Below are positions 1 through 31,999 of a DNA stretch of 32,000 nucleotides, piece by piece; the first letter of the stretch is position 1, and every line of letters begins with the position of its first letter. Location of the stretch: assembly GCA_021498095.1 (NCBI GenBank), contig JAIZWK010000001.1, positions 960,001-992,000 of the forward strand, read 5' to 3'. The DNA is from Candidatus Harpocratesius repetitus. GTDB lineage: Archaea > Asgardarchaeota > Lokiarchaeia > Sigyniarchaeales > Promethearchaeaceae. The position numbers and the translations under genes are program-made. Below the pieces are notes generated by a model, which did not search any database, was not told the origin of the DNA, and saw only the letters and a list, made by a program, of their open reading frames with translations.

Positions 1-1
1 T

Positions 2-1480
2 TTTCATGAATGAAGTTAATGAAATCATTGACGAAAGACTCATTAAGTTCACTTGGTGTCCACCTGAACTCCATAAATATTTATTAAAATCTTCTTTAAT
101 CATTTCGTGGATTAATAAGATTTTATCTGCCCACTTATTTATATAATTTTTAATATTATTTGCGCGGAAAAATGTTGTTGGATTTATATTATCAATCCAA
201 TTATTTCTAATTATAATTGGAAAATTCTCTTCAATGAATTTGAATTTATTTCTCAAAGATTTAATATAATTCAAAGCTGATGGTGAATAATCTAATAAAT
301 CATCAAAAAAAGAAATAACACTTTTATATTTTCCGACATGTAAATTAAGAAATTGTTTTACTTCTTTTGCAGGGTAAGTACAAATGAATTCTAAATTAGA
401 TAATTTAAGATCTAATGAATATGGTTCTTGCAACCATTGAATAATCGGTTCACCTGTCTTTGTTTTTATTTCTTGATTTAAAATATTATTTAAGAATTCA
501 TCAGTCGGAATAATAAATGACTTAGATAAATCTTTGTTTATTCGAAAGATATATTTCATCACTTTTGGGATCATATCAGAATAATGTTTGTCAGTACGCT
601 TTCCCTTTAATAGTGAATCTAGAGCCCAAATATATCTAGTTGACACACCTCTTTTTTCTGTGGTGAATCCTATCGATAAACCATAAATTAAATTTACAAA
701 TGTAATTAGTAGTTCTTTTTGAAATTTACTGAAAATTTTTGAATTTGTTTTTGAATAAGCAAGTTTCTTAAATATTGCTAAGTCGTTATGAAAATCTTTT
801 AAAGCTAAATGAACACTTTCACTAGAATCTCTAAAAATTATTAATTTTTCTTTTTTAATTTTAAAAGTTGAAATAGGATAAAAGAATATCTCATCTTCAA
901 CAATTTTTATTGGAATAAGGTTGTTTTCATTTTGATAGGTAATATGTCCAACTCCTTTTTTAGAAACTTCATAATCCTTTAAGTATTTAATAACCATTGT
1001 TTCAGGATTTAAATTTTTATACATACTTAATAGATTTGGGTTGTATATTATATATTTGAGAACAATTGCGTCACGAAGAGTCATTCCGTTAGCTTTTTTT
1101 GGAAATAATTTCGAATTTCCACAAAGAGAAGAATCAATTTTTGGATTTTTTTTTAATTCAAGATATGGGTATCTAATTTCAGTATTATCGCGAATTGTCT
1201 TTATCATATCTTTTACTTTCGGCTCTAAGCGCGTTGAAAGTTTCTTTCTATAGAATTGAAATTTATTTTTAAAATTTTTTATATTAATAAGAAAATTAGG
1301 ATATGCAGACAATTGAATATTATTAATTAATAATTTCCTTTGATCTCTTTCCCAAATCTCCTTTTTAATTTTATATCCAAAATAAAAATGATTCCCTTTT
1401 TCTCCTAATTTTTTAATAGATATTAATGGAATCTTAATTTCTGACATATACTTTTTTGGATTTTTTGCAAAATCCGATAT
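2..1480 (-). other. AT-rich, Lys/Ile/Asn-rich C-terminal region of unknown fold (>=490 aa, continues past the window edge)
   Basis: Sampled 60-nt lines give ~13-30% GC here versus ~35-38% just above 1500. Translation switches from acidic/aromatic to basic. Confidence 0.75.
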
Positions 1481-4400
1481 TTTCGTTTGTTTTCCAGGAT
1501 CAACTACTTCAACTTTGACTACTTCTGAGCGATGTTCAGTCACATATTTCTTGTCAATCCATCGAGCTCCAGTTTCAACATCTAAATCCATTGCTCTTCC
1601 ATCAGCATAAACGCAAATTACTTTACCATACTCAAATGTATAAACCACATCAATCGATCGCCCAGTTCCTTCTCCCACACCAAATAGTGCTTGATAATAT
1701 TTGCTGTCTTGTTGAATTACCGCCTGAAAATTTTCCCCAAACAATGCCATTGCTTCCAAGAGTGCCTTATTTCGTGCCCGAATTGAAAGGTGACAGCTGG
1801 GAAAATTCATAGATGTTAAAGCTTTAGGATTAAATTTATATCCTTGAACCCGCAGTGCTTCCCGTAAGGAAGATCGCATATTGGCTTGAAGAAATTGTGT
1901 GAAAGTACCGAATAATAAAGGCTGCTGCTGTAAAGATTGCGCTAATTGTTTCAAGCCTAAATTGGTGATCATTGTCCGCATTTGCTTGATAACTGCCGTG
2001 CGTTTGGATTTTAAGAGATCATGTGTTTGATATTTGGTTCTCAAAGTACATAAGCTGGAAAAATCTTCTTTTTGCACGAACTGATCTTCCAAAGCGTAGA
2101 ATAGATTGCGCTCTCCCGAAGAAAGATAATCTTCCCCTTTGAAGGCGTTTATTTGTCCTTCCAGAAAGTCTGGAATAATTTCGGCTAAGATATTCCAAAC
2201 TTCACTGTCTCCTAAGCCGAGATGGGATAAACCGCGGGCAATAGCATCCTCCAAAATCATTTCTTGGAATACTTCTTTTCCAAACTGCCATACCCATTGC
2301 GATATGGAAAATTTATTCACCAAATCTCCGCCACTAACCTTTAATACGGCATATTCGCTGAGATATCCCATAGGATTCAGCAGGAAACTCACTCCATTGG
2401 CAATTAGAACCCCTTCCACAACTTGTTGAAGCTGTAGTTTGCGCATATCCTTCAAGATTTCTGGATCTGAAGAGGAAATTTCAGCATATTCGGTCCAATA
2501 AGCCGAAGCCAAACACATTTCGTAATAATCCATCAATCGTTCTAATGGACGGGATATGTTCCATGAAGATGAGATCAAGGGGACGACAATTGGACGACCC
2601 ATAGAATTGAGTTTAAAGCGAAAATCGGTATACATACGACTGTAATTGCCTAAAATATTCCTGATTCGTCCTTTTTCATTTGCATCCATAAAGGCTAAGT
2701 CAGAAGGAGGTGTTCCGATATTCTGCCAGTAATAATTGTAAATTTGGGGATTAATAGTGCTGGTGATGTCAATCGTAGAGAAGTCAGGAGCATCAGGCTC
2801 GGGTCGAGGGACATATCTAAGTTCGGAAAAATCATTAATATTTTGAAGGGAAACAGATGCCCCTACACAATTCCAGAAGCTTTCTAAATTACTGTAATAG
2901 GATGTGTTATAGTAATAAGGTGAAAAATAGAAATCGCGATATTTCCACGGTTTTGAGGTGTTTGTGAGGGGATCAAAGGTGGAATAATTCCAAGCAGCTT
3001 GCAGTAGATCTTGATAGAGGTTTTCTAAATGATTGTAGACAGTTGCATTATCCATGAAGAAGTGGGAATCTTTCGTAATTCCAACTATTTCATATTCATC
3101 ATATGTGCTATCATTACAAGCGATATAATTACGCCACCAGCGGTATTGAGCCAAACGTAATGAGAAGATAAATTCATATTCTAATAAATCGACCGAATTA
3201 TATCTATTAAAAATCATTTCAGGAAGTCCTATTTTCACCTCTTGGATGGAAAGAGATGGTTCGGAATCTTCTGTAGTTCCACCTATATCCCGCCACTCTG
3301 TTAAACTCCACCATAAAGAGGTATCAAAAATCGGGAGACTGGTTTCGACTACCCTTACTTGCATTACACGGGAGGAGAGAAATGGAACTAAATCTTGAAC
3401 AAATGCTTGAGTGGCATCTTGGAAGGTGTAAGGATCTTCTTCAATATCACCTAAATAATTCGGTTTCTGCAAGCCGTAATATCCATATTCTATCCAATGA
3501 TCAAGTATTTTTTCACGAAGATAATATTGATATAAGTAATTTAAGCCAAAATACATAGCAAAAGATATTCCACTTGCCGCGGGTTCAGGTAGAATAAAAG
3601 ATAATCCGGCTGTCATTAACACGTTTACTCCCATGAGAACATTATTTACCACTCGATCTAACTGATAACTCACAGAAAACATCGTAGGTGTACCGTGATG
3701 TAGTGAATCCATTCTTGCCTCATGGTCTTTTAAAGCATCATACCAAGCCATTCCATATATTTGTTCAAATCCGTCAACACCACTCAACCAATATGAAGGG
3801 AAGAAATAATCACCCGAACTGAGATAATCATCAACACCAAGATGAAGATAATGATTGTCTTCAGATTTTACGTAATAACCAATAGAATAATTTTCCGCAA
3901 ACGATTTCTCAGTAAAAATGAAACCTACATTAAATCGATTAGATCCATCCGGATCGGTCCAGTAAATCACTCCATGAGGATCGGTCAGAAGTGTATCTTG
4001 CAAGATTTGATGATTTTCACTGAAACCAACCCTGGGATCAACCATAACCTCAACATCATACTGCGGAATTACCTCTGTAGTTATGACCGTTCGATTTAAA
4101 ATATAAGGAGTACTGGAGTTAAAGTAGATAGAACCAAATTCATTGGTAATAAATTTATCCGGTCCGGAGATCATAAACGAACAATTTTCTGCCAAGCGAT
4201 TTCCCCGCTCAATCTTACCATCCCGTATTATGGTATAGGAATCATATACCCAGTAGGGATCCGCCGATTGATCTAAATCTAATCCTGCATTATCAAATCG
4301 ATCTTCACGGACAGCGATTGATTCAAAATTACCATCTCCATCTAAATCAAACGATTCAATTAATGTGGGGATTGTTTCCATCTCTGTGACAGGGATTAGT

Positions 4401-7400
4401 GAAGGACCTTCTTGGGATTGTGAAGCCGAATAAAGATCCATCTGAATGTTATAAGCAGTTTTCATTCCTGAAAAAATCGAATATAAGTGATCTCGATTGG
4501 TGAAAAACGCTTTAAACTCAGGTACCGGATCTGATACCAACCGCATCATTTGGCGTGTTTTTTTATCGAATACTCCATCACCGGTAAAATCTTGACTAAC
4601 CTCAATATATTCCTGCTCTTCATACTGCACAAAATAATGCCCAGTATCTCCCCCGTATAAATTATGGTTAAGTCCGTAGAGATTTGGGTCAGTAATCTGT
4701 GAAATAGATTCCGTGCTGTCAAATAAGACTTCATAGTCCCATTCTCCATCGCACCCAAAATCATAACGGAGATAATCCTTAACATTATTGGTAAAGTTTC
4801 CCACACCTTCTCCATCAAGAGCTAACACAGTAAGCTCATATCCATCATTCATGTCGTAATTCAGATCATATGTAGTTTGCTTCATCCAAGGAATTGTATA
4901 GGTAATGCAGCCCTCATTAATTGGTTCCCATTGAATTGGATGAACATTCCGATACCAAGCGGTCATTGTACGAGTATTTTCACGCTGTTGGGGATCAAAA
5001 TTATAACTGAAAATGGCTTGAATATCGGTTTCATATGCATCATCGGTTGTAGAATTTGGAACGGCGTAAACCGCCAAATTACTGAAGTATAGGGGTTGAT
5101 CTGCTTCATCTTGGTCCCATAATCGGGTTCCATAGAGAGCAATAGAATCAATGGAAATGGTGTCATTCGCCACTTGAAGATCAACAGTTTTAGTTTGCAT
5201 TCCTAAAGGTCCTGTAAAAACTGTCGGAAAAAGATCGAAGTGTTGGGTGACGCCATTGTTGTATGTTAATTCGAGGGCAGCTATAGAACGTTCTGTATAA
5301 AATGCCATTCCTTCAAACCCAATCCCTGTATGATTTGATGTCATAATTGAGTTGTTAAATTCGATTCCTACTGAAATGCCCACTAACCGATTACCGATAC
5401 CTGCAGATTGCAAATCTTCCCTTACTGTATTCATAATTTGAAGATTATTTTTGTTTTGAGACCAATAATGATGTGTACCGTCTGCATAATCGAAAGAAAG
5501 GGTAATGGAAAGGAAATCTTCTCCAGGAAGTACATATAAGGGAATTTCTAAATAACGATATATAACCGGGTTAAAGGACTCAAGATAAAGATCGCAAAGA
5601 TCCAGAGAAAAGTTATAATTCGGACTAATATCTCCTTCAATCGAAATGACATTCTCATCATTCAAGATGTCCCTTTTCCAATTATACGTATCAAAAGAAA
5701 GCATGGATTTATGATCACCTAATGAATCCACCGACCAATTTAAATTAGGAGCAGGAATGGTAACATGTGATTCATCAATTAAAGCATGAAGATCATTCAT
5801 CGTGTTATCTAAATTAATATCATCAATTAGAGGATGGGTGTATTTATCATCCCAGTACATTACTGTATCTAAATTCGAGCGATAAAGATGGAGATAATCA
5901 ATCGACAATACGTTTTTAGTTTGATGGATTCTATAGTGCACATTAGGATTCTTTGCACTAAAGGCAATTCTCACTCCTTTAAATCCTACGTATTTTCCGT
6001 TAGATGTAATTAAGAAGCGAGATAAGTCTGATTCAGATAAGACAACTAGATCATCATAAGTTTCATAGGATATTCTATTGGCATAATAAAGATTTCCTTT
6101 CACTGAAGCGACTGTTATCCATGAATCACCATTAAAGAATTGCAGCGAGGCATTATTCCAATATACTGTATTCTTTTTGTCTGCGTTTTCAGGATCCCAC
6201 ATGGAAACAGTGAATTTTGCATCAATATCAATTCTATTAATGCAGTTCATATCAATTGGAGTAAAGGTCATGTCAACTGTGATGGTTGTATTAACATCTC
6301 TTTCTTCCGACCTAAATGTGAAATTCTGAGCCAGATTGTCGTTTTTAACTTTTAATTTTTGAATCAAGTCTGATGTTTCTACAGGTATCATATCTTCTGT
6401 ATTTGAAACTGTTAACCCTGTAATTGGAATTTCTTCAGATATATATGGAATATCGGCCATTTCTTCTAAATTATGACCATCAGCATACCGTGGAGCATTC
6501 CAATCGGTAATGACAAAATCACGGTCATTTGGCCCAAGATTGTAGGAAAGAGCGGCGGAATAGGTGTAATTCAAGGTAGGGTCTTTAGGTAAAATTACAG
6601 GATTCATTAAAGTACTAATACCGTTGGCAGTCGAAGAGAATGAAGCTGAAATTTGTCCCGTAGATAAGGTTTGATTCCATATCGAAGGCATTACCAACAA
6701 GAAGATTTCTCTGGTTTTCAAGGGTGAATCATCAATAACATTATGAAGAACGGCACCTCCGTCATATGGAATACGTTTAACGTCGTAAAGAGAGATAAAG
6801 CCGTGATATATTATAGGCTCGGTAATGGAACTTAAGACTTTGGGATTAATTTTCAGACTGGTTACCCCTTTTCCTACAGAATCTTTAGGAGAAAATTCTC
6901 CAAATGAATCGAAATTATCACCTACTGCATTCCCACAAGCATCGCTTTCGTTATACCACCGCCAAAGGTTTTCTTGTGTGATAGTAGGATAATCCCATCC
7001 GTTTTCTTCATCAAAACCGCTCCAAAAATAAGAATGTTCATCCAGCATGGTCATAATTTCTGAAAGTTTATGCACTCCACTAGTAACGCTGGAAGGATCA
7101 TCAAGTCGGAGATAGTAATCGTTGATGGCCTCATCCCATTCAGAGGGGTTAGAAGTATTGGTTATTCCGAAATCAAAACCGTTTTCTATAAAATAATGTA
7201 AAAAGGAGCGACCAAAGACTCTTTCTCGTAAATCATCAGAATAAGCGGTTGGAATGGAGATAATATTTGTATCACCGGTAATGTGTCCGCGTTTTAAAAT
7301 GATGGGTGTAATAGAAGTCCGATCGCTATCAACGACAGTGATATTCCAACGCAAAAAGACCTGCTTACTCCATAAAGATTGGGCAAATACATGGGAAAGA

Positions 7401-10400
7401 TCAACGAACCATCCTTTTATATTCGATCCCGTGACACGATCTGATGCATCAATGGTATAGTTCAACCATTCAAAGTTATCATCATTATCCACCTCAACAG
7501 CATATAGTTGAATATCAACTTGCAAATTGGAAGGATCCCATGAATCAGTTTCAGGAATATAAATCTGCCAATCGATCTGTCCGTTATATGGGAGAAAGAT
7601 TGCAGGTGGAGTGAAGAGCAGTGATTCATTATACCGCAAGCCTAAATACATGGCATCTTCCAAAGTATAATTTCCAGTGTTTGTGTAATTATAAAAGGCG
7701 GCGGTGCGAAATCCATGCAAAGGATTAGCATTATCACTATAGAATTGATAACCTTCCAGAATTTGCGTTGTTAAAGGTAGAGAGAAGGCTTGTGAGATAT
7801 TCCAATGATGCTGTTCAACTGTGAAAAGATGAGGAAAGTTGAATGTGGCATTAAATGTTGCATTTTCGTATAGACGCCAGTTGAACATAGAAGAACTGGA
7901 GTGAATAAGGAAATTTAAATTATCAGAATGAATGTCTACATTAATTAAATCATTAACATTATCAGCACCAATTGAAGCACTAAATTGGGGAACTGCACTT
8001 TGAATTGAGCCGTTTAGATACATCCAATCTGAAGGATCGTGATTACTATTAATTTGTTCTAAAGCTGTTCCTAATTCTTTACCGAAATACCATACATTAT
8101 TGTGATCATAATCATTCGATTCTGTGAGGGTTAAATTACAAATGGTAATGTTGTAATTGGCAAAAGGTCGGTATTCTTCCCAAGTTTGATTGATTAAACT
8201 TTCATAATAATCAGATTCATAAAAAGCGGTCCAATTTTGATCCCCACTAGCATTAAAGATATTAAAATGCTGTGTTTCATTAAGATTCCATTCAGGGTCC
8301 ATATCGAACTGATAATGAAAACTAATGTTAGTATTGATTCCATCCATCCACCTAAATTCATATTCAAAGGGTATTGATTCATTCCAAGCTGAAGCATTAT
8401 TAATTTCAAAGGAGACTTGGGTGGGACGATTATTAACCCACAATTCTAATGTAATACTATCAGTAAAGTTGTAATTTTCATTAATGAAAGCATCACTGGA
8501 TACAACAAGATCTCCCGATAAAACGGGATAATTGTAATTGTAATATCCTTTACTGATATCTCCAGTAGCATTGACCAAATAGGCATTGCTGTATCCTTCG
8601 GAATCATGAGCCAGATCATTTAAGGTATAAAGATGGGTCACTGAATCTAAAGTATATGTCTCGGCTCCTTCTACTGTTAAACCTGTATCGACACTCCTAT
8701 AAGTGGCATTATAATAGCGGGATATCACCGAGACTAATTGATAATTCAAAGAATAATATCCAGGTAATAAACGATCTAATTGTGGACCTGCTGTTTCTGG
8801 AGTATAGACAAATTCTGCAATTCCTTGGCTATCAGTTTGGAGTATATAAGGGACATATCCCGTTCCATTCCAATAGCCGTCAATAATTTTCTCAGTTTGA
8901 TCAGAATCATACAGATCACACTGGATTAAAATTTGACTAGAAGCATCCAATCCAAAACGGCTTAAGAAATTATTAGCATCTAAATCTTCTGCAATTCCTT
9001 CTCCTGCTTCGGTATCCGTTTCAGCCACTGCGGCAAAAACGGAGAAATTGGCTGTTGTTACGGGCATATTCGCCGTTACCAATGTAAGATCTTCTGGTTC
9101 TATTAGTAGAATTCCTTCGATAGCAGTAGAGAGATAGCATGGATCAGCATATATTCCATCTGCATAATTAGAACTTTGAAGAATGGGAACTGCATCATCT
9201 GAATCATATATGTATTTTTCGTGATCAAACAATTCTGTTTCGTAAAGTTCTCCTTGATATTGGAAAGCGGGAATCTTCATATCATCAGCATTCCATTGAT
9301 CTGCATAGAAGATTCTAACATACAGCGGTACAGATGATACTGAATCAACAGGGATGTGGGTGATTTTCTCATACAGATCACAAATATCATATAATACATC
9401 TCCCTCAATCTCGAAATGGGCAATACCCTCAGCATTCGTCTCAGATACATCGTAATACAATGGAGCGGTCCACTTATACGTCTGTGTATCTTCTTCAAAG
9501 AAAGGATACAAAATTGGTCGATCCACCAACCCTTGAGTATAATGATGGAGCTGCAAATTGGCTGGTGGTTGTATATCTTGGTAATAAAGATATTCTCCAA
9601 AGCACGAACCCAAATCTGAAGTGAAATTATCCCTCCACGGCCATTCAGGAACGATGGATAAGGAAAGCCAGACGGGTAATTCTGGTGCATTATATCCTAA
9701 GATTTCATCTGTCATGCGTACGTCGATAGGAATATTATCGGAATATTGTACGGTCAAATTCAGTAAATTACCTGGTGAGATCCATGTATCAGCAAATTGG
9801 GAGCGGGCATTCATAGTAATTTCTCGAGGTTCAATCTGCAAAGTAAAAGAATGCGCTGTAGGGAAATAATGAGAATTTCCGCTAAAATAGGTTCTCATTA
9901 AGTATTGACCTGGAATTAGATCAAATGTGCTTCCAAAGGTTGAATCAAAGTAGAATTGGAATAAATTATTTGTAATTAACTCGCATGTTTGGATTGTTTT
10001 CCACATTTGATTATCCCAAATTTGAAGTTGAATAACATTGGAACTGAGATTCAAAGTCCGATTATACACCCAATTATTTCCTTCGTTAATATAGAAAGGA
10101 GTTTCATTATATTCGGGAATTCTTTCTAATACCAAATCCACCCCTCCTGCAATAAAAGAATCCGCTGTATTAAATGGAACAGGAAGGGTTAATGGATCTT
10201 GATCAGTTAAATAATAGATAGAAGCATTGTGCCGCTGTAATATAAAGGATAAATCAATAATGTCTGAAGTAGGGACAAAAAAGGCATTACCTGAATATTT
10301 AACCCGAAAATCTGTATATTCATCAGATCTACCGTATAAGATAAAAGTATATGGAGTTTCCATGTGTTCAGAAACAGCTATGCCCAAAATTACTTCTTCA

Positions 10401-13400
10401 TTCCCATGATTAGCCACTATTTGGAAGGAATCTAAAGTATCAATGAACACTTCTTCAGGGATGGCCGGGGAAAAGTGAAAATTCGTCATATTTACATACG
10501 TTCCTGTTATAAAATCAGAGACATCAAAGGTGCAGTCTGTCAAGTTCACAGAAATCGGATTGATTTTGAGAGTAGCCGTATTGAAACATGAATGAAAATC
10601 ACCAGAATGAATTGAAATATCAAGATTAAGATGATATATGCGATTATCTATCCCTTGAGGGAGTGTTTCATAAAAAGTGGTGGCGTTATTGAGAAAATCA
10701 ACGAATTTTATTGAAGTAATTCCGAAAAAGTAATTTGCATAAGTCGGGTTTAATACTTCAAAATGGGGCATAATAGTATTTGGAACGGCTCGAATAGAGA
10801 TTTTCTCGGTTAAATTCAAAATGTAATTCGGATTAAATGCCGCAATTTTAACAAATGGAACAAAAAGTTTCAGCTTCCGTAATAACATATCATTATAAAG
10901 ATATAGGCTGGGAGATTTCGTAATTAAAGACACAATATCTTGAGTATCAAAGGTATACACTGCAGTTTCAGTAACATTTCCAGTTGTATATGAAAATTCC
11001 ATTACAAAACTTTTAAAAATGCTTCCAAGATCGGGTAACCAATTATCAGGAATCACAATATTGGCTGATATACCTTCAAATGAAGCATTTATCCATTCAA
11101 CATTTGAAAAGGTGAAACCTATTGTATCTAACGCAGCTAACCCTCCATAGTAAAACTCCATTGAAGTTGAAATATCAAGATTAGGATCATAAAGATTTCC
11201 TTCAGAAAAGTCAATATTTGATATTGAAGTAATACTTACATTAGATAGATTTCTCAGATCTTGCGAATATAAGAAGGCGGAATCTATTGGTATGGAGAAT
11301 GATCCATTATTTCCTGTTTTTACTGTTTGATAGTTTAAATTATCAAATTGAATATTTACTAAAGAATTGGAAGGTAATGGTTGATCGTACTCATCAAAAA
11401 TATTACCGGTAATGAAATCTGCATAATGAACTTCAAGATTCTCCGATGAATTATAAATCACATGATAATTTTGATTAATTCGGAGAGATTTGCTGGTGAT
11501 TAATTCTTCATTTCCTGCTTTATCTTGCGCCCAGAATTTTAAAACCAAATTGGAAGAAGAAATCATCGGGATTTCTTGAAGTAAATTCCAAAGGTCAAAT
11601 CTAATTTCTTGAGAAGGATTAGCAATCTCTGTTGAAAGAAGAATTACATTTGATTCATCCCATAGTTGTAAGTTGAATGAACTTATTGTATTTTCATCAT
11701 TCAAACTAAAAATCAAAGGAGTTTGAGCGGAAAGATCAATAAATATTCCATAATCATGACTATAAGTTGAATTTTGTATCCAATTCGAAATTGGTGCAGT
11801 TCGATCTATAATAATGGATTGAAAGCATTCTCCTGTATTGCCATCGGAATCTTCAAGTGCTGCACGAAGTGTGACTAATCCTTCAGGCATTCCAACAGAA
11901 TATGAATCGATGCTTGCAGTATAGTGATTATCACCTGTAGAAAGAGTATCTGTTAATACAGGATAGAACGTGACATTGTCTTGAGTCCATTCAATAGTTA
12001 TTGAAGATAAATCAGTTGAATAATCCACAATATTAATAGCGAATAAATCTCCGTATTCTGGTACTTGATTATAGGGAATATTGTAGAATTCGGGATGGGG
12101 TTTGCTGATATCTAGTGATCCAAGCATATATTTCTCGCAGATAGTGGTATTCGTAATGTTGTTGATCATTCTCAGTCGAAGATTTACGATTGCTTCATTC
12201 GGCTGCATTACCATCACACTTCCATCGTCAAAAGCAAGATCTTCCCGACCGTTACCATCAAGATCTCCGAGAGCCAAATTATCAACAGGATCTTCCCGCA
12301 AACGTTCCATTTCTCGATGATATGTGACTGCGGTGGCGGTTACAAAATTATCTTGAATGCATGAATGGGTTAAAACGATGGGCTCTTTGCGCATATTGAT
12401 CATGTAAAATGCGGTTCTTATATAGCCCGTGATTACCATATCCCCATCCGATGAGTGAACATATTCCCCAATCTGATTGGAAGAGAATAGGTTAGCACTG
12501 ATATCAATTGAATATATCAAATAGCGGTCCAAACCATTTTCCGAAAGAACAGACTTCAGCATTGGTTTCACGGCAAATTTTACAGGCATACTGCTGTATT
12601 GGTTGTCGAGATACAATTCTACTTTTGGTTCAACTGGAATCACTAAACGAGGATCGCTGATATTAATCGCTGAACCAAACCCTAAAAGACTTGCATTAAC
12701 AATCAGATCGAACTGACCATGAATGTTGATGGTATCCCACTCACTAAGATCAAAATCGTAACTATTTCCCAACACAATCTCGAAAGCATGATGGTCTTCA
12801 TCGTAATTTGCAATTTGGGTAAAAATTGGTGTGTCTGATTCAGATCGACACCGAATCGCTTCTATATAAAGTGTATCGAAATCAATTAATATTAAATTGG
12901 CTAAATTGGTACCCGCTATAGATGATAATTCAGCAAGATAATTGTTGTGATCGATGATCAACCTCATTGTGAATTGATATACTCCTGGAGCGGATTGATT
13001 ATCTTCACCAAAATTCTGCCAATTGTCTGTTGAAAAGTAGTATTCCAGATTGACCATATTATTAAAATAATTGAGGGGATTAGTGATGGACATATCATGC
13101 CATACTCCTTGATGATCCCGAATTTGTAAATAGGTTTGTTGATTGTTAGTATTCCACCAATCTATTTGAGGAACATCACGTGTATTAAAGGCATTTATTC
13201 CAGAATAATAATTAGTTGAATGCGTTATTGAATCCCAGATATAATCTCTTAGAATTCCATTTAAATTATATTTAAGAAATTCTAATTCCGAAAATGTAAT
13301 ATTCAAAGCATTTGTATCAAGATCGATTGTAAATTCCTGCACAAATTTCGATTCTGAATTTTCATTTTGATTACCAAAATCTATCTGAACTGTGCTGGTT

Positions 13401-25400: not shown

Positions 25401-28400
25401 CAAATCCCGTTCCCCTCCAGATAAAATTCGGCATAAATTGAAACCATTTGGGGATCTAGATCGACAATAGGTGTAAGAATAACAATAGGATGGTTATAAT
25501 GGGCGGAAAATTCAAAAAATTTGTATGAAGAAGTAATTCCAGTCCAAACCCCCATCTCCATAGCAAAGGAGGTTATTGGTATGCAAGAATATGATGATGA
25601 TGAATTGATCACAAGGTCAGGATGAGAAAAAATCATATCGAATTCATCGGGATCCGCATAAACCGAAGGTAATGTAAATTCAACAGTAATCTGCAATTCA
25701 ACAATTCTCATCCCCAACCAAGGAGTTAGGTCAAATATCCATGTTTCTAAAGTGCTATTTTCAGAAAAGACACCTTTGGCGACTTCTGTTTCGTTTACCA
25801 TAATTTGATATGCACCGGTGGAATCGAGCGATCCTGCGGGTAAAACTGATGAATTAATGAAGCCCGTTAAAGAAATATTCCCATATATGCAAGAACTCGT
25901 ATCATAATCGGGAGCATAAATAAATGAGGTAGAAGCGGTAGTTCCTTGAGAACCGGTGCGCAGGCCCGAAATGCCCGAAATTATATAGCCGTCATTAACT
26001 ATTGTAGTGTTTAATGTTTGAGATGAAGATGAGAAGGTCAGATCTTGCCATTGATTGAGATGTTCGGCTGAAGACCAAGATGCAAGGTAGTTCATTTCTA
26101 TTTTAATTGATCTGAATGCGAAAAACCAAGAGTCGGGAGTTCCCCATGTAGTATTGTAAAAACCCGTGTTGAATATCATTTTAAGCCCGAGATAAAGTCG
26201 GGTGGATCTTGTATATGCAGAAGAAGAAAGAGATACGTTGATATAATTAAATGGTGAGCCTTGTGAAAAGGTGATCGGGATTATCTCGAGGATGTTGTGG
26301 TTCTCATCGTACATGACCGCTTCCAGCTCAAATGGTGTATCTCCAGGAAAGTCGTAATCATCATGAATTTCCCTAAAGGTCTTCATATTTAAGCTGATTG
26401 TTCCATTGAGAATATGTGTCGCAGGAAGGAAAAATGAAGGCGAAATAATAGTAATTTCTCCATTTTCCCCAGTAATTGTTCCATAATACATACAATCTTT
26501 TGCATCCCAAACATCATGGAACATGGATGGGTTAGTCTGCTCGTAAATCGTCCAACCATTATATCCTGTTGTTCCTCCTCGCCATGACCAGGCCCTAACT
26601 AAATTAGTAGTGGTGGTAATTCGAACAGGATATTCGGGATCACCTGAAATCTGCCCATCTTCATCAATACTCTCAGGAATTTGATAATCGAATTGATCAT
26701 AACGGTGAACCGCATCTAAAATATCGGTCGCTACGCAATCACTGTAAAACTCGTTTCCATTCCAAGAAAATTGAGCAATTGTAGTTAAAGGAACGAAGCC
26801 GGAACAATTTGTATATTCGAAATATCCAAAAGCGTTTGTTTGAAGATTAGTAAGGAACAGATATTCTCCGCCAATGTATTGCGAAAGGCTTACATTTGCA
26901 AAAGAAATCACCCGATTTGTATAAAGATCTTTCAATGTTGCGCGAAACACATTTTTAAATTCATCATGTGTATTAATAGAAATAAACCCTGCTGATGTCC
27001 CTTTTTCAATGGGGAAAGTAAAATGCGCATGAGAGGGAATGACCCTTATTGAATACTGTGCGGAACTATTATACGGGACATAATTCCAAATGTCACCAAC
27101 AACGCTAATCTGTACATAATATAGTTCATTAACAACATATGATTCATTACTCAAGCGCTCGGGATCCATTGCAAACGTAACGCTGTGCGATCCCGCAGGT
27201 AAACTTGCTCGATAGACATCCATCAACACATCATCACTGGCTCTTCGAATCTCGACGTGGTTAACAGTATCTTGATCTGTAGTCCAGGTTATATTCAATT
27301 CATCAAACACATGAATTCTGAATTCTGTGTTATTATAGTTCCATCCTGAAAAACCAGAATTTTGACCGTATAAACATGATAACTGCACATCAATGATGGG
27401 ATTTGTATTTGATGGAAGAGCATTAACATAAAAGAATGATGAATAAGTACCCATACAAAAAACGAAAATAAAGATTGCCCAAAATGTTACTCTTCGCTTC
27501 TTTTTGCGAATATTAAAGACTTTCTGGCCTACCAGCCAAATTCCTGTTATTAATAGTATGAATAATAATGTACTACCTATATCTGGACTGGGTTTAAAAG
27601 AACTTAATGGAAGAGAATCCTCTATAGAATTGTGTAAAATGTGGGGGATGATTGATTCACGTGTAGAAATTTGTCCGTCAGAAACGGTCACTTCCAACAC
27701 ACTTGCATTGTCTGTAATAAAACCTCCTAAAATGGTAAAATTCATCAAAAACGATTTTTCCTTAACCATTCCTAAAGAGAATAAAGAACCTTCATACAAT
27801 TTCCGCTCTCCATACCGTATTCGAACTGTGGAATTTGGCAAAAATTCGTAATCCGTCGCAACGATTTTGAAATAAGCTTTCTTATTTGGTCGAATTTCTG
27901 GAGTAATCTGAATAATATCAACTTCGGGGCGCTTGTTTTCCATTACATTAACAATTACTTGTTGATGGGTGCGGGTAACATCAGGAGCTTCTACAATAAC
28001 ATCCAATACATTAGAACCGATTGGAAATTTACTTGCATTTAAGTTATAGATAATATCGGTTGTTCCTGTATAATTGGCAACCATCAATTCAGAACCGTTA
28101 TATAGAAGATGGAATCTGCCGAAATCATTAGCTCGATCAATAACGCTAAAACTAACATTTACGATTTCCCTTTTATCTATTTCCATATTCATTGGTGAAA
28201 CCAAGCGAGGTGCTAAGTTTTCAACAATTTTTAGATCAACTGATGAATATATATAACCTATTAACGGATCTTCATAACGGAGCATCAATTCATACAACCC
28301 TACATCCCAAGAACTGACATTTAATTCAATTCTGCTGTTAGCTGGAGACGAAGAAATAATAAAATAATTTCTGGTTATAGAATCGTTTAAAATAATGGAA

Positions 28401-30976: not shown

Positions 30977-31999
30977 TTAAACATATGGATCAGGAAGTAT
31001 TACATATTTAATAAAACCGTAAGAAGTATCTTCTATCTGTTGATTGAATCGGAGATACAATTTAGTTTTGGTCTGATCGAATCCATATGCGATTCCTATA
31101 TTAAATCCTTTTATTCTCATATCATTCACTAATTGTCCAATAAGTTCATCCATTGCGGTATTATTTTCGATTTTTTTAATTTCTATTGCTAATTTATCAT
31201 CTATAGTGATATCTATATGAGATCTTCCACATAATCTTGGATGTAATTTAACATTTTGAAAATGTTTCGTTAATTCTTTGACAATTGTAGGATTTATTCC
31301 AGTATCTTCATTAGGTAATTCATTTGGAAATAGATCTTTTATTGGGAGATCATTCAAAATTTTAGCCACTTTATTTAATAATGGATCTATAAAGTTAGGT
31401 ATTTCTAATCCTTTCTTTCTCCTATCCGAAATTAACATCTGAATTCCCTTTTGAGAACCAATGTCTTGAAATCTCTCTTGACTGCTTTTAGCAATTCTTT
31501 CAAAAATACTTCTTAACACAGGAGATTCTGATTTTTTTATGTCTTCAAGGATTTCATGAAGAATGTGAAGCGATTTTTGATAAGTTCGATAACATTCATT
31601 ATAAGAATTTGTATTTACTAAATCATTTTGCAATTCAGGAATATCTTGCCATTTTTTAAGCAAGATCAAAATTCCTGATGGAAGATCTGACTCATATTCT
31701 TTTATATCATTTTTCAGCTGTCTGCAGTGTTTATTTATAGTTTCAACAGTATCAGAAATTAAATATATAAGATCTTCAATAATTTTCCAAGTAGGTTCAC
31801 ATGAATGTTTTTTAGCATATTTTTTCTCATAATTGCCAAATAAATTAAATAATTCATTAAATAGCAATTTGACTTTTCTAAACACTTTTTTTTCTATTTC
31901 GATTCGAATTTTATGCTGCAAAATATTGATTTTTAATTCTTCTTTTTCTTCTTCCGAAGTACTAACCGTAATCGCTTTTTCGTTGTAAATAATTACTTT
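30977..31999 (-). CDS. PD-(D/E)xK restriction-endonuclease-fold protein with helical N-terminal region; 5'-partial (>=340 aa)
   Basis: C-terminal CGRSHIDITIDDKLAIEIKK...DELIGQL has the D...IE-x-K catalytic pattern. The frame stays open upstream of the track's TTG at 31921 to the window edge (KVIIYNEKAITVSTSEEEKEELKINILQHK...), so the true start is outside the window. Confidence 0.8.
   Translation of the reverse strand, partial: KVIIYNEKAITVSTSEEEKEELKINILQHKIRIEIEKKVFRKVKLLFNELFNLFGNYEKKYAKKHSCEPTWKIIEDLIYLISDTVETINKHCRQLKNDIKEYESDLPSGILILLKKWQDIPELQNDLVNTNSYNECYRTYQKSLHILHEILEDIKKSESPVLRSIFERIAKSSQERFQDIGSQKGIQMLISDRRKKGLEIPNFIDPLLNKVAKILNDLPIKDLFPNELPNEDTGINPTIVKELTKHFQNVKLHPRLCGRSHIDITIDDKLAIEIKKIENNTAMDELIGQLVNDMRIKGFNIGIAYGFDQTKTKLYLRFNQQIEDTSYGFIKYVILPDPYV

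Follow-up and report, generated by a model that had tools for sequence, protein, structure and literature searches.

What kind of protein is encoded by a reading frame so long that it runs off the edge of a 32-kb stretch of archaeal DNA, and what does the far end of this protein do? The stretch analysed here (the window; 32,000 nt, G000:C1:960001-992000, where G000 is the source genome) comes from Candidatus Harpocratesius repetitus, and positions are given in window numbering unless they are marked as genome positions. Most of the window is filled by one minus-strand open reading frame (ORF), which we call the giant. It is virtually certain that the giant is a real gene, and very probably it encodes a surface protein. 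It is also likely that the protein ends in an exchangeable tip with a cognate partner, a leucine-rich repeat (LRR) protein encoded by the next gene. As the best reading overall, we give somewhat better than an even chance to an archaeal polymorphic-toxin-like system carried on a giant stalk. Two observations are new here, namely a pair of paralogous tails that are alike before and unlike after an Asp-Pro boundary, and the statistics of N-glycosylation sequons (N-X-S/T, with expectations obtained by shuffling).

In the ORF listing of the window, the giant frame at 2..29254 begins with ATG, is stop-free for 9,751 aa and is open at its 3' end at the window edge; no second ORF of at least 300 aa overlaps it. 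The first-pass annotation had described one protein of at least 9,751 aa filling the window on the minus strand and not yet ended at position 1, and had proposed extension into the adjacent sequence to find the stop. Both statements were confirmed by this extension, in which the frame continues for 1,054 nt beyond the window edge to a TAA at genome 958946-958948. The full gene is 30,309 nt long including the stop, and the protein has 10,102 aa, a mass of 1,147,312 Da (1.147 MDa) and an isoelectric point (pI) of 4.39. Since a TGA lies one codon upstream of the ATG, the start cannot lie further upstream. The ORF contains no N. The genome is a single contig of 4,361,485 bp with a GC content of 31%, at which about 7.8% of random codons are stops, and the calculated chance of 10,102 stop-free codons is about 1e-356. 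The extreme size noted at first pass is borne out by the whole genome, in which the giant is the longest frame by a factor of 2.3 (the next longest has 4,297 aa). The same annotation had considered the gene unlisted and easily missed. Accordingly, a collection of 5.8 billion proteins contained no match at 5,363-17,065 aa, and at shorter lengths the matches were limited to two fragments (324 and 287 aa). Since the giant is invisible in such large collections, genes of this kind are systematically under-annotated. Two small-subunit rRNA genes in the genome match the archaeal model at 1,457-1,472 bits, and the host is a low-GC Asgard archaeon of the Lokiarchaeia type.

Homologues of the giant were sought by a six-frame search of 30 relatives. 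G010, a closed 6,035,313-bp genome from the same family, contains homologous frames of 9,753, 7,597, and 9,602 codons, and fragments of giant homologues were found at contig ends in five further genomes of this family. The three giants extracted from G010 (G010_A, G010_B, and G010_C; 9,739, 7,593, and 9,599 aa) are colinear with 7,588 of the 10,102 residues (75%) at 22-30% identity. Among 400 genomes of the phylum, matches were found in 6 of the 13 other genomes of the giant's own family, together with one weak match in a second family, and the giant family appears to be restricted to one Lokiarchaeia family. Furthermore, pieces of the gene from a second strain, on contigs from a run of another study, are 95-99% identical to the giant. 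Of the 31 differences listed, 21 are at codon position 3, and about 20 are synonymous, a pattern indicating purifying selection in the giant's frame. Contigs from the probable source sample, whose support is not independent of the assembly, tile window positions 1-20000 with zero insertions or deletions. They break at two short bubbles and at 1553-1758, the latter as expected for a 374-nt repeat shared with a paralogue. In the short-read contigs of the same sample there are also alternative 120-nt unitigs at 7517-7636 and 8039-8158, one of them with 5 differences, and these split unitigs suggest co-existing strain variants.

It is very improbable that the giant is an artefact, that is, a decaying pseudogene or a mis-assembly across the 374-nt repeat that fused a surface-protein gene to an unrelated gene. 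The GC content does fall from about 37% to 28% over the last 2 kb, the short-read contigs break within the shared repeat, and the read support all comes from the probable source sample. However, the conserved body runs past the repeat, and the alignment with the other giants extends to the Asp-Pro at residues 9252-9253, which is inside the tail. In addition, G010_C, from an independently closed genome, ends in the same C-terminal domain family as the giant, and on either side of the repeat the contigs have the variants specific to the giant, with 0-3 mismatches. No stop interrupts the frame over 1,100 codons at 28% GC, the substitutions show purifying selection, and even if the two repeat copies had been exchanged, the giant would end in a tail of the same family. 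Thus the claim of a genuine prokaryotic protein of more than 1 MDa, with no misread stop or evident chimera, is upheld by colinear homologues, purifying selection, and indel-free tiling.

The giants share their bodies and differ in their tips. The body is colinear among four full giants and two fragments, and their tips are unlike or only 34% identical after Asp-Pro (window 1496-1501). Seven tails were aligned with MAFFT (those of G000, its free-standing paralogue, G001, G010_A, G010_B, G010_C, and G013), and all seven have two hydrophobic residues followed by Asp-Pro, after which similarity is lost. The giant fragment from G001, a genome of the same genus, aligns to residues 8300-9266 and then continues into an unrelated tip of about 970 aa. 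In G000 the tip is basic and about 850 aa long, and its last 256 aa or so (residues 9847-10102) form a C-terminal domain (CTD). This tip has two further copies in the same genome, a free-standing 959-aa gene (genome 1521083-1523962) and, at about 1.631 Mb, a 349-aa gene equivalent to the final third of the tip. At the DNA level, the 5' end of the 959-aa gene shares the repeat mentioned above with the giant (recombination handle, Table 1). At the protein level, the giant and the 959-aa paralogue are identical at 116 of 128 residues (90.6%) from the first residue of the paralogue (residue 9126 of the giant) to Asp-Pro and at 268 of 795 (33.7%) after it. As read from the two sequences, a pair that is alike before and unlike after Asp-Pro is direct evidence of recombination at a defined boundary.

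Separate tip genes are also seen between genomes. A free-standing 604-aa ORF in G000 (genome 49377-51191, minus strand) is homologous to the extreme C-terminal tip of the G001 giant (E 4e-23), and thus the tips of one genome's giants exist as separate genes in another. This ORF has zero sequons (3.8 expected) and a weak match to the CTD family. A smaller copy of the pre-tail module, 28% identical to residues 8300-8736 of the giant, was found at G000:C1:1337654-1338991 (minus strand). It sits in a frame of about 1,050 aa that is broken by one TGA and one TAG and is followed by a 296-aa ORF without family matches, and it may be a decayed relative of the C-terminal part of the giant.

Each of the three tip copies in G000 is followed on the same strand by an LRR gene, encoding 457 aa after the giant (genome 957360-958730) and 371 and 366 aa after the other two. 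These LRR paralogues are 32-40% identical among themselves, and the range becomes 32-51% once the pair of G010 paralogues described below is added. Five of the six giants (G000, G010_A, G010_B, G010_C, and G013) have an LRR gene directly after them on the same strand. At the G010_C locus, the order is the giant with its CTD, an LRR gene (LRR333), a 206-aa orphan CTD, and a second LRR gene (LRR310). The orphan is about 97% identical to the CTD of the giant over residues 38-115 (all but two of 78) and about 45% identical beyond, and LRR333 and LRR310 are 51% identical. The gene after G010_B (7,593 aa; L023 13526-15085, plus strand) begins 8 nt before the stop of the giant and encodes a SMI1_KNR4/SUKH-1 domain (E 8e-10, above the cut-off) fused to about eight LRRs, a fusion that resembles a 'polyimmunity protein'. 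The end of the G010_B tail itself has a match to Toxin-deaminase (PF14424; E 1.4e-5, 25.7 bits versus a cut-off of 29.6), with Asp-x-Glu and Pro-Cys-x-x-Cys motifs. Imm-LRR, Imm-SUKH, and polyimmunity fusions are defined immunity classes, and Asp occasionally replaces His in toxin deaminases (PMC3482391).

The sequons may point to where the tails go. Across G000, the ratio of observed to expected sequons is 1.40 in ORFs containing transmembrane (TM) helices and 1.00 in soluble ORFs, and therefore sequons mark exported sequence in this organism. Along the giant, sequons persist past a hydrophobic helical hairpin, which has a conserved place in at least three of the four full giants, and the last sequon is at residue 8899. 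The last hydrophobic helix follows in all four giants, and beyond it the K+R content roughly doubles and sequons vanish. Taken together, the tails of the four giants and two free-standing tips contain 0 sequons, while 34.8 are expected. In the same sequences seven control motifs (the reversed sequon, D-x-S/T, Q-x-S/T, N-x-A/G, N-S/T, N-x-x-S/T, and K-x-S/T) are observed 21-36 times, with 26-47 expected. CTD-bearing ORFs of other genomes have 5 sequons (29.6 expected), and the LRR partners have sequons at expectation. Since nothing would drive a domain that always stays in the cytoplasm to lose every sequon, the simplest reading of these counts is that the tails likely meet the glycosylation machinery and yet must stay unglycosylated.

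What the tip does was approached through its C-terminal domain. The CTD family was found only in the family of the window, where 5 of 14 genomes, G000 among them, each have several copies, and it is carried by ORFs of 208-1,823 aa and by the end of G010_C. An AlphaFold2 model from 12 sequences has an alpha/beta fold, with a predicted local distance difference test score (pLDDT) of 69 and a predicted TM-score of 0.72. No Foldseek match to this model reached E 0.001 or lower, and in a wide VIA search no Z was 5 or higher. Restriction-endonuclease-fold proteins are frequent among the top-ranked weak matches, including CdiA-CT and a type VI secretion system effector, and Asp-32, Glu-44, and Lys-62 are conserved in the CTD; in this model these features are at most a hint of a restriction-endonuclease-like flavour. 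When the CTD was modelled in complex with the 457-aa LRR protein, the score was 0.00, which was counted neither for nor against binding. Sequence searches added little to this. Pfam gave no match on the last 1,500 aa, and when the tail, the paralogues, and the LRR partners were compared with NCBIfam, PADLOC, and PHROGs, weak LRR matches were all that was found. When the 1,138-aa tail was compared with 1.84 billion representatives, only 6 short fragments were found, mostly G000's own paralogues. A PDB sequence search with the end of the G010_B tail gave nothing useful, and an ESM Atlas feature search with the tip and with residues 5160-7200 gave no usable match.

In bacteria, polymorphic toxins (CdiA-CT/CdiI, Rhs-CT/RhsI, MafB/MafI; Zhang et al. 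2012, PMC3482391) have the same general layout. Like the giant, they combine a very large exported stalk and a conserved body with a variable C-terminal tip, a short boundary motif before the tip, a downstream partner gene that diverges along with the tip, and spare cassettes of tip and partner that keep a near-identical pre-tip stretch. The partner classes are also those of catalogued immunity proteins. A conserved stalk, a boundary motif, a variable tip, a co-diverging partner, and spare cassettes with a handle are the five elements that together define polymorphic toxin systems. The differences are considerable. The giant belongs to an archaeon, and its stalk, a glycoprotein of 10,000 aa without repeats, is predicted to be TM-anchored at its N-terminus. 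The boundary is hydrophobic-hydrophobic-Asp-Pro instead of VENN or DPxGL, a hydrophobic hairpin and one helix precede the tip, the orphans are hundreds of kb distant, and the tip, which is about 850 aa long, has no recognised toxin domain. Pfam detected no TPS/FHA, RHS/YD, LXG/WXG, MafB-N, HINT, PrsW, or PVC peptidase domain in the whole protein. Since Big_7 is the only domain above the Pfam cut-off, the giant cannot be filed under contact-dependent inhibition (CDI), Rhs, MafB, or LXG systems, and the general layout alone is common to them. Compared with the G010 giants of the same family, this giant comes from another genus, has its own five-helix N-terminal anchor and a helical insert of about 1,000 aa, and has dispersed orphan cassettes, which are adjacent in G010. 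There are predictions of polymorphic toxin systems for some archaea (PMC3482391; PMC6393860), and a contractile injection system is a demonstrated case of contact-dependent antagonism between archaea (PMC11566945). In the literature searched, no paper joining Asgard archaea, contact dependence, and toxins was found.

Toxin delivery would be the most likely mechanism on these grounds. The giant would be a long cell-surface fibre that is anchored by its N-terminus and carries an exchangeable effector tip, and the LRR protein would be the cognate cytoplasmic binding (immunity) partner of this tip. Tips would be swapped by homologous recombination in the conserved pre-tip handle. The tip would then leave the cell, possibly after a cut at Asp-Pro, and act on neighbouring cells. 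We give a little less than an even chance to the reading in which other cells receive the tip as a toxin and the LRR protein is its antidote. Several observations weigh against this picture. The last hydrophobic helix, with the K/R-rich tail behind it, has the classical look of a TM anchor whose tail is cytoplasmic, and in that case the tip would stay inside the producer. The giant's own tip has no toxin domain recognised by Pfam, NCBIfam, PADLOC, or PHROGs, the structural neighbours of the CTD model are weak (best Foldseek E 0.06, VIA Z at most 3.9), and Pfam found no known export or processing domain in the whole giant. The deaminase match of G010_B is below the Pfam cut-off, and the G001 giant is followed by a gene without a detectable LRR. 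The free-standing tip genes carry start codons of their own, lack a signal peptide, and might encode ordinary cytoplasmic proteins, and the orphan cassettes are 560-670 kb from the giant, unlike the classical loci, where they are directly downstream. Moreover, the sequon-free zone begins at the last hydrophobic helix and not at Asp-Pro, and thus it also fits a late export of everything behind that helix.

The arrangement of helix and basic tail could instead mean that the giant is an adhesin or envelope fibre anchored at both ends. Its C-terminal 1,100 aa or so would then be a permanently cytoplasmic domain for signalling or cytoskeleton docking with the LRR protein as adaptor, and the variability of the tail would come from fast evolution or partner co-evolution. 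This would agree with the conserved helix directly before the tail in all four giants, with the rise of K+R and the loss of sequons exactly there, with the cytoplasmic look of the free-standing paralogues and LRR partners, which lack signal peptides, and with the lack of a recognised toxin domain in the tip. A purely cytoplasmic tail was our first reading, and it was downgraded after the sequon statistics and the orphan cassettes. Cytoplasmic proteins hold sequons at chance (1.00), whereas the tails and tips have 0 of about 35 with normal control motifs. Anchoring at both ends would also leave unexplained the orphan cassettes with a near-identical handle that ends at Asp-Pro, the immunity-type SUKH domain, and the deaminase-like end of G010_B, and we consider it rather unlikely. 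A quite improbable alternative is that the giant serves kin or self recognition without killing, with the polymorphic tip and the LRR partner as a lock-and-key pair for strain identity presented by the fibre. Cassette polymorphism and co-varying partners would fit this equally well, no toxin fold is proven, and similar ideas about recognition have been put forward for the hypervariable Ig-domain modules of Thermococcales (PMC8416519). However, the LRR partner has no signal peptide or TM helix and could meet a neighbour's tip only if that tip enters the cell, which is the delivery step of the toxin model, and the SUKH domain and the deaminase-like match point to antagonism.

Delivery of the tip and a membrane helix before it could be reconciled by a bacterial analogy. 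CdiA is said to form a long surface filament whose toxic C-terminal part is held on the producer side until contact is made. By analogy with this secretion arrest, the LRR partner would keep the tip in the producer cytoplasm behind the last helix, and the tip would be threaded out after the fibre contacts a neighbour; the tail sequons would have been purged as the unfolded tail passes the oligosaccharyltransferase. This version is unlikely, although it would account for both the helix with its K/R-rich tail and the sequon purge. It is a pure analogy: unlike in the CdiA model, there is no outer membrane or CdiB here, and there is no sequence similarity.

The rest of the protein fits a surface location. 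Hydrophobic helices, a pI of 4.4, sequons, the Big_7 domain, and the beta-sandwich model of part of the body all point to a surface protein (Table 1). In the ectodomain, D+E exceeds K+R by a factor of two to five, and most 500-aa bins have at least the expected number of sequons. Self-BLAST found no internal repeat in the giant (E<1e-3); to our knowledge, this absence is unusual for a giant protein. Neither G010_A nor G010_B has the insert of about 1,000 aa, part of which is present in G010_C. Ig-domain adhesins and S-layer-type archaeal surface proteins have arrays of Ig-like, Big, PKD, or cadherin-type domains as well as an N-terminal signal and a C-terminal anchor. For comparison with these, the giant offers one Big_7 domain and a low-confidence beta-sandwich model of residues 6032-7200. 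Foldseek matched this model to complement C5/C3/C4, alpha-2-macroglobulins, and the archaeal S-layer protein 7ptp at E 1e-14 to 1e-11, with TM-scores of about 0.1, which are low because the domain orientations are arbitrary. In this low-confidence model the piece is a long chain of diverged beta-sandwich domains, and by extension the rest of the body may be the same. PDB sequence searches with the whole protein gave only marginal dysferlin noise. The giant is among the largest archaeal proteins, non-repetitive, and nearly without recognised families.

Table 1. Features of the giant, in order from its N-terminus (window numbering unless marked as genome), and other sequon-free ORFs of the genome
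Feature	Residues	Position	Strand	Basis or remark
ATG (29252-29254) and basic K/R-rich N-terminal segment, probably cytoplasmic	1-69	29048..29254	-	Composition
Three hydrophobic helices, predicted N-terminal membrane anchor	70-88, 93-111, 131-153	28796..29047	-	Kyte-Doolittle peaks 2.0-2.7 over 19 aa
First extracellular loop (predicted), with sequons	154-557	27584..28795	-	10 N-X-S/T in residues 1-500; 21-24% identity to G010_A and G010_C
Helices 4 and 5 around a short Arg/Lys-rich loop	558-580, 589-607	27434..27583	-	Kyte-Doolittle peaks 1.9 and 1.7; loop from translation
Giant acidic ectodomain (predicted; ~7,900 aa), non-repetitive, sequon-rich	608-8537	3644..27433	-	Composition, self-BLAST, colinear with G010 giants
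Helical/coiled-coil insert (~1,000 aa)	~2170-3200	19655..22747	-	Sub-threshold Pfam coiled-coil matches at ~2946-3184; alignment gap
Big_7 bacterial Ig-like domain, PF17957	3672-3732	18059..18241	-	E 5e-9, 37.1 bits versus cut-off 24.1
Beta-sandwich chain model	6032-7200	7655..11161	-	AlphaFold2, 8-sequence alignment, mean pLDDT 58, mostly strands
Hydrophobic helical hairpin	8538-8580	3515..3643	-	Kyte-Doolittle; homologous places in G000, G010_B, G010_C
Last hydrophobic helix	8945-8963	2366..2422	-	Kyte-Doolittle; region aligns across giants
Conserved pre-tip region, ending Val-Val-Asp-Pro	8964-9253	1496..2365	-	MAFFT, seven tails
Recombination handle (374 nt)		1531..1904	-	92% DNA identity to 5' end of 959-aa gene (G000:C1:1521058-1521431), 560 kb away
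Variable tip	9254-9751 in window, on to 10,102	2..1495 (on to genome 958949-960000)	-	GC 28%, 0 sequons versus 7.8 expected
Five other sequon-free ORFs		Genome, G000:C1: 2262095-2264920, 2914580-2917531, 3120868-3123198, 4145166-4147601, 4076737-4078770

Sequon-free sequence is not confined to the tails. There are ectodomain stretches without sequons in this giant (residues 2557-3165, window 19760-21586; residues 4539-5126, window 13877-15640), in G010_A (3880-5364), and in G010_C (4244-5512), each with 0 observed and 7-14 expected (9.4 for residues 2557-3165). The first coincides with the helical insert, and the second lies in the part that is least conserved between giants. Five further large ORFs of G000 (677-983 aa) have 0 sequons where 6-8 are expected. 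They have no similarity to the tails of the giants or to the LRR partners, and they may encode other exported-but-unglycosylated proteins.

The genes around the giant differ on its two sides. Downstream of the LRR gene, the translations read as pyruvate:ferredoxin oxidoreductase-like subunits and TFB-like proteins, which are housekeeping functions. The upstream neighbour at 30977-31921 (minus strand; 314 aa, TTG start) has a frame that is open to the window edge, and near its C-terminus there are weak matches to PD-(D/E)XK_3 (E 0.022) and GxxExxY (E 0.0036). Further upstream are a DDE_Tnp_1 transposase (genome 993283-994590; L027 1283-2590, minus strand; E 2e-7) and an ATPase with AAA_15/AAA_21 and DUF3696 domains (genome 997371-999050; L027 5371-7050, minus strand; E 1e-24). 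By its gene content, this flank looks like a mobile or defence island. Asgard genomes hold many unrelated giant genes, including the aloposon genes Otus and Ephialtes (Wu et al. 2022, PMC8813620, Extended Data Fig. 7), and most archaeal proteins of more than 10,000 aa come from Asgard lineages (West-Roberts et al. 2023, bioRxiv 10.1101/2023.11.21.568195). Aloposons, described in Heimdallarchaeum, have tandem giant genes, are integrated at a tRNA that lies downstream, and carry four upstream genes including a MinD/ParA ATPase (PMC8813620). In contrast, there is a single giant here, neither the window nor its two flanks (15 kb and 12 kb examined) contain a tRNA, and there is no ParA/MinD gene among the upstream genes. 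An aloposon was therefore rejected.

Lokiarchaeia include cultured relatives of the eukaryotic ancestor and live in tight multi-species consortia. If the reading of the tips and LRR genes as exchangeable cassettes is true, these archaea would own a contact-dependent system of effector delivery or recognition. Its fibre could span hundreds of nanometres and would bear on competition, kin recognition, and partner interaction. The absence of sequons in the tails, including the free-standing spare copies, may provide a cheap statistical marker for exported effectors in glycosylating archaea. Should the tip indeed be threaded out upon contact, sequon purging would be a general signature of exported-but-unglycosylated archaeal effectors, and the closest prokaryotic relatives of eukaryotes would own a megadalton machine for contact-dependent delivery.

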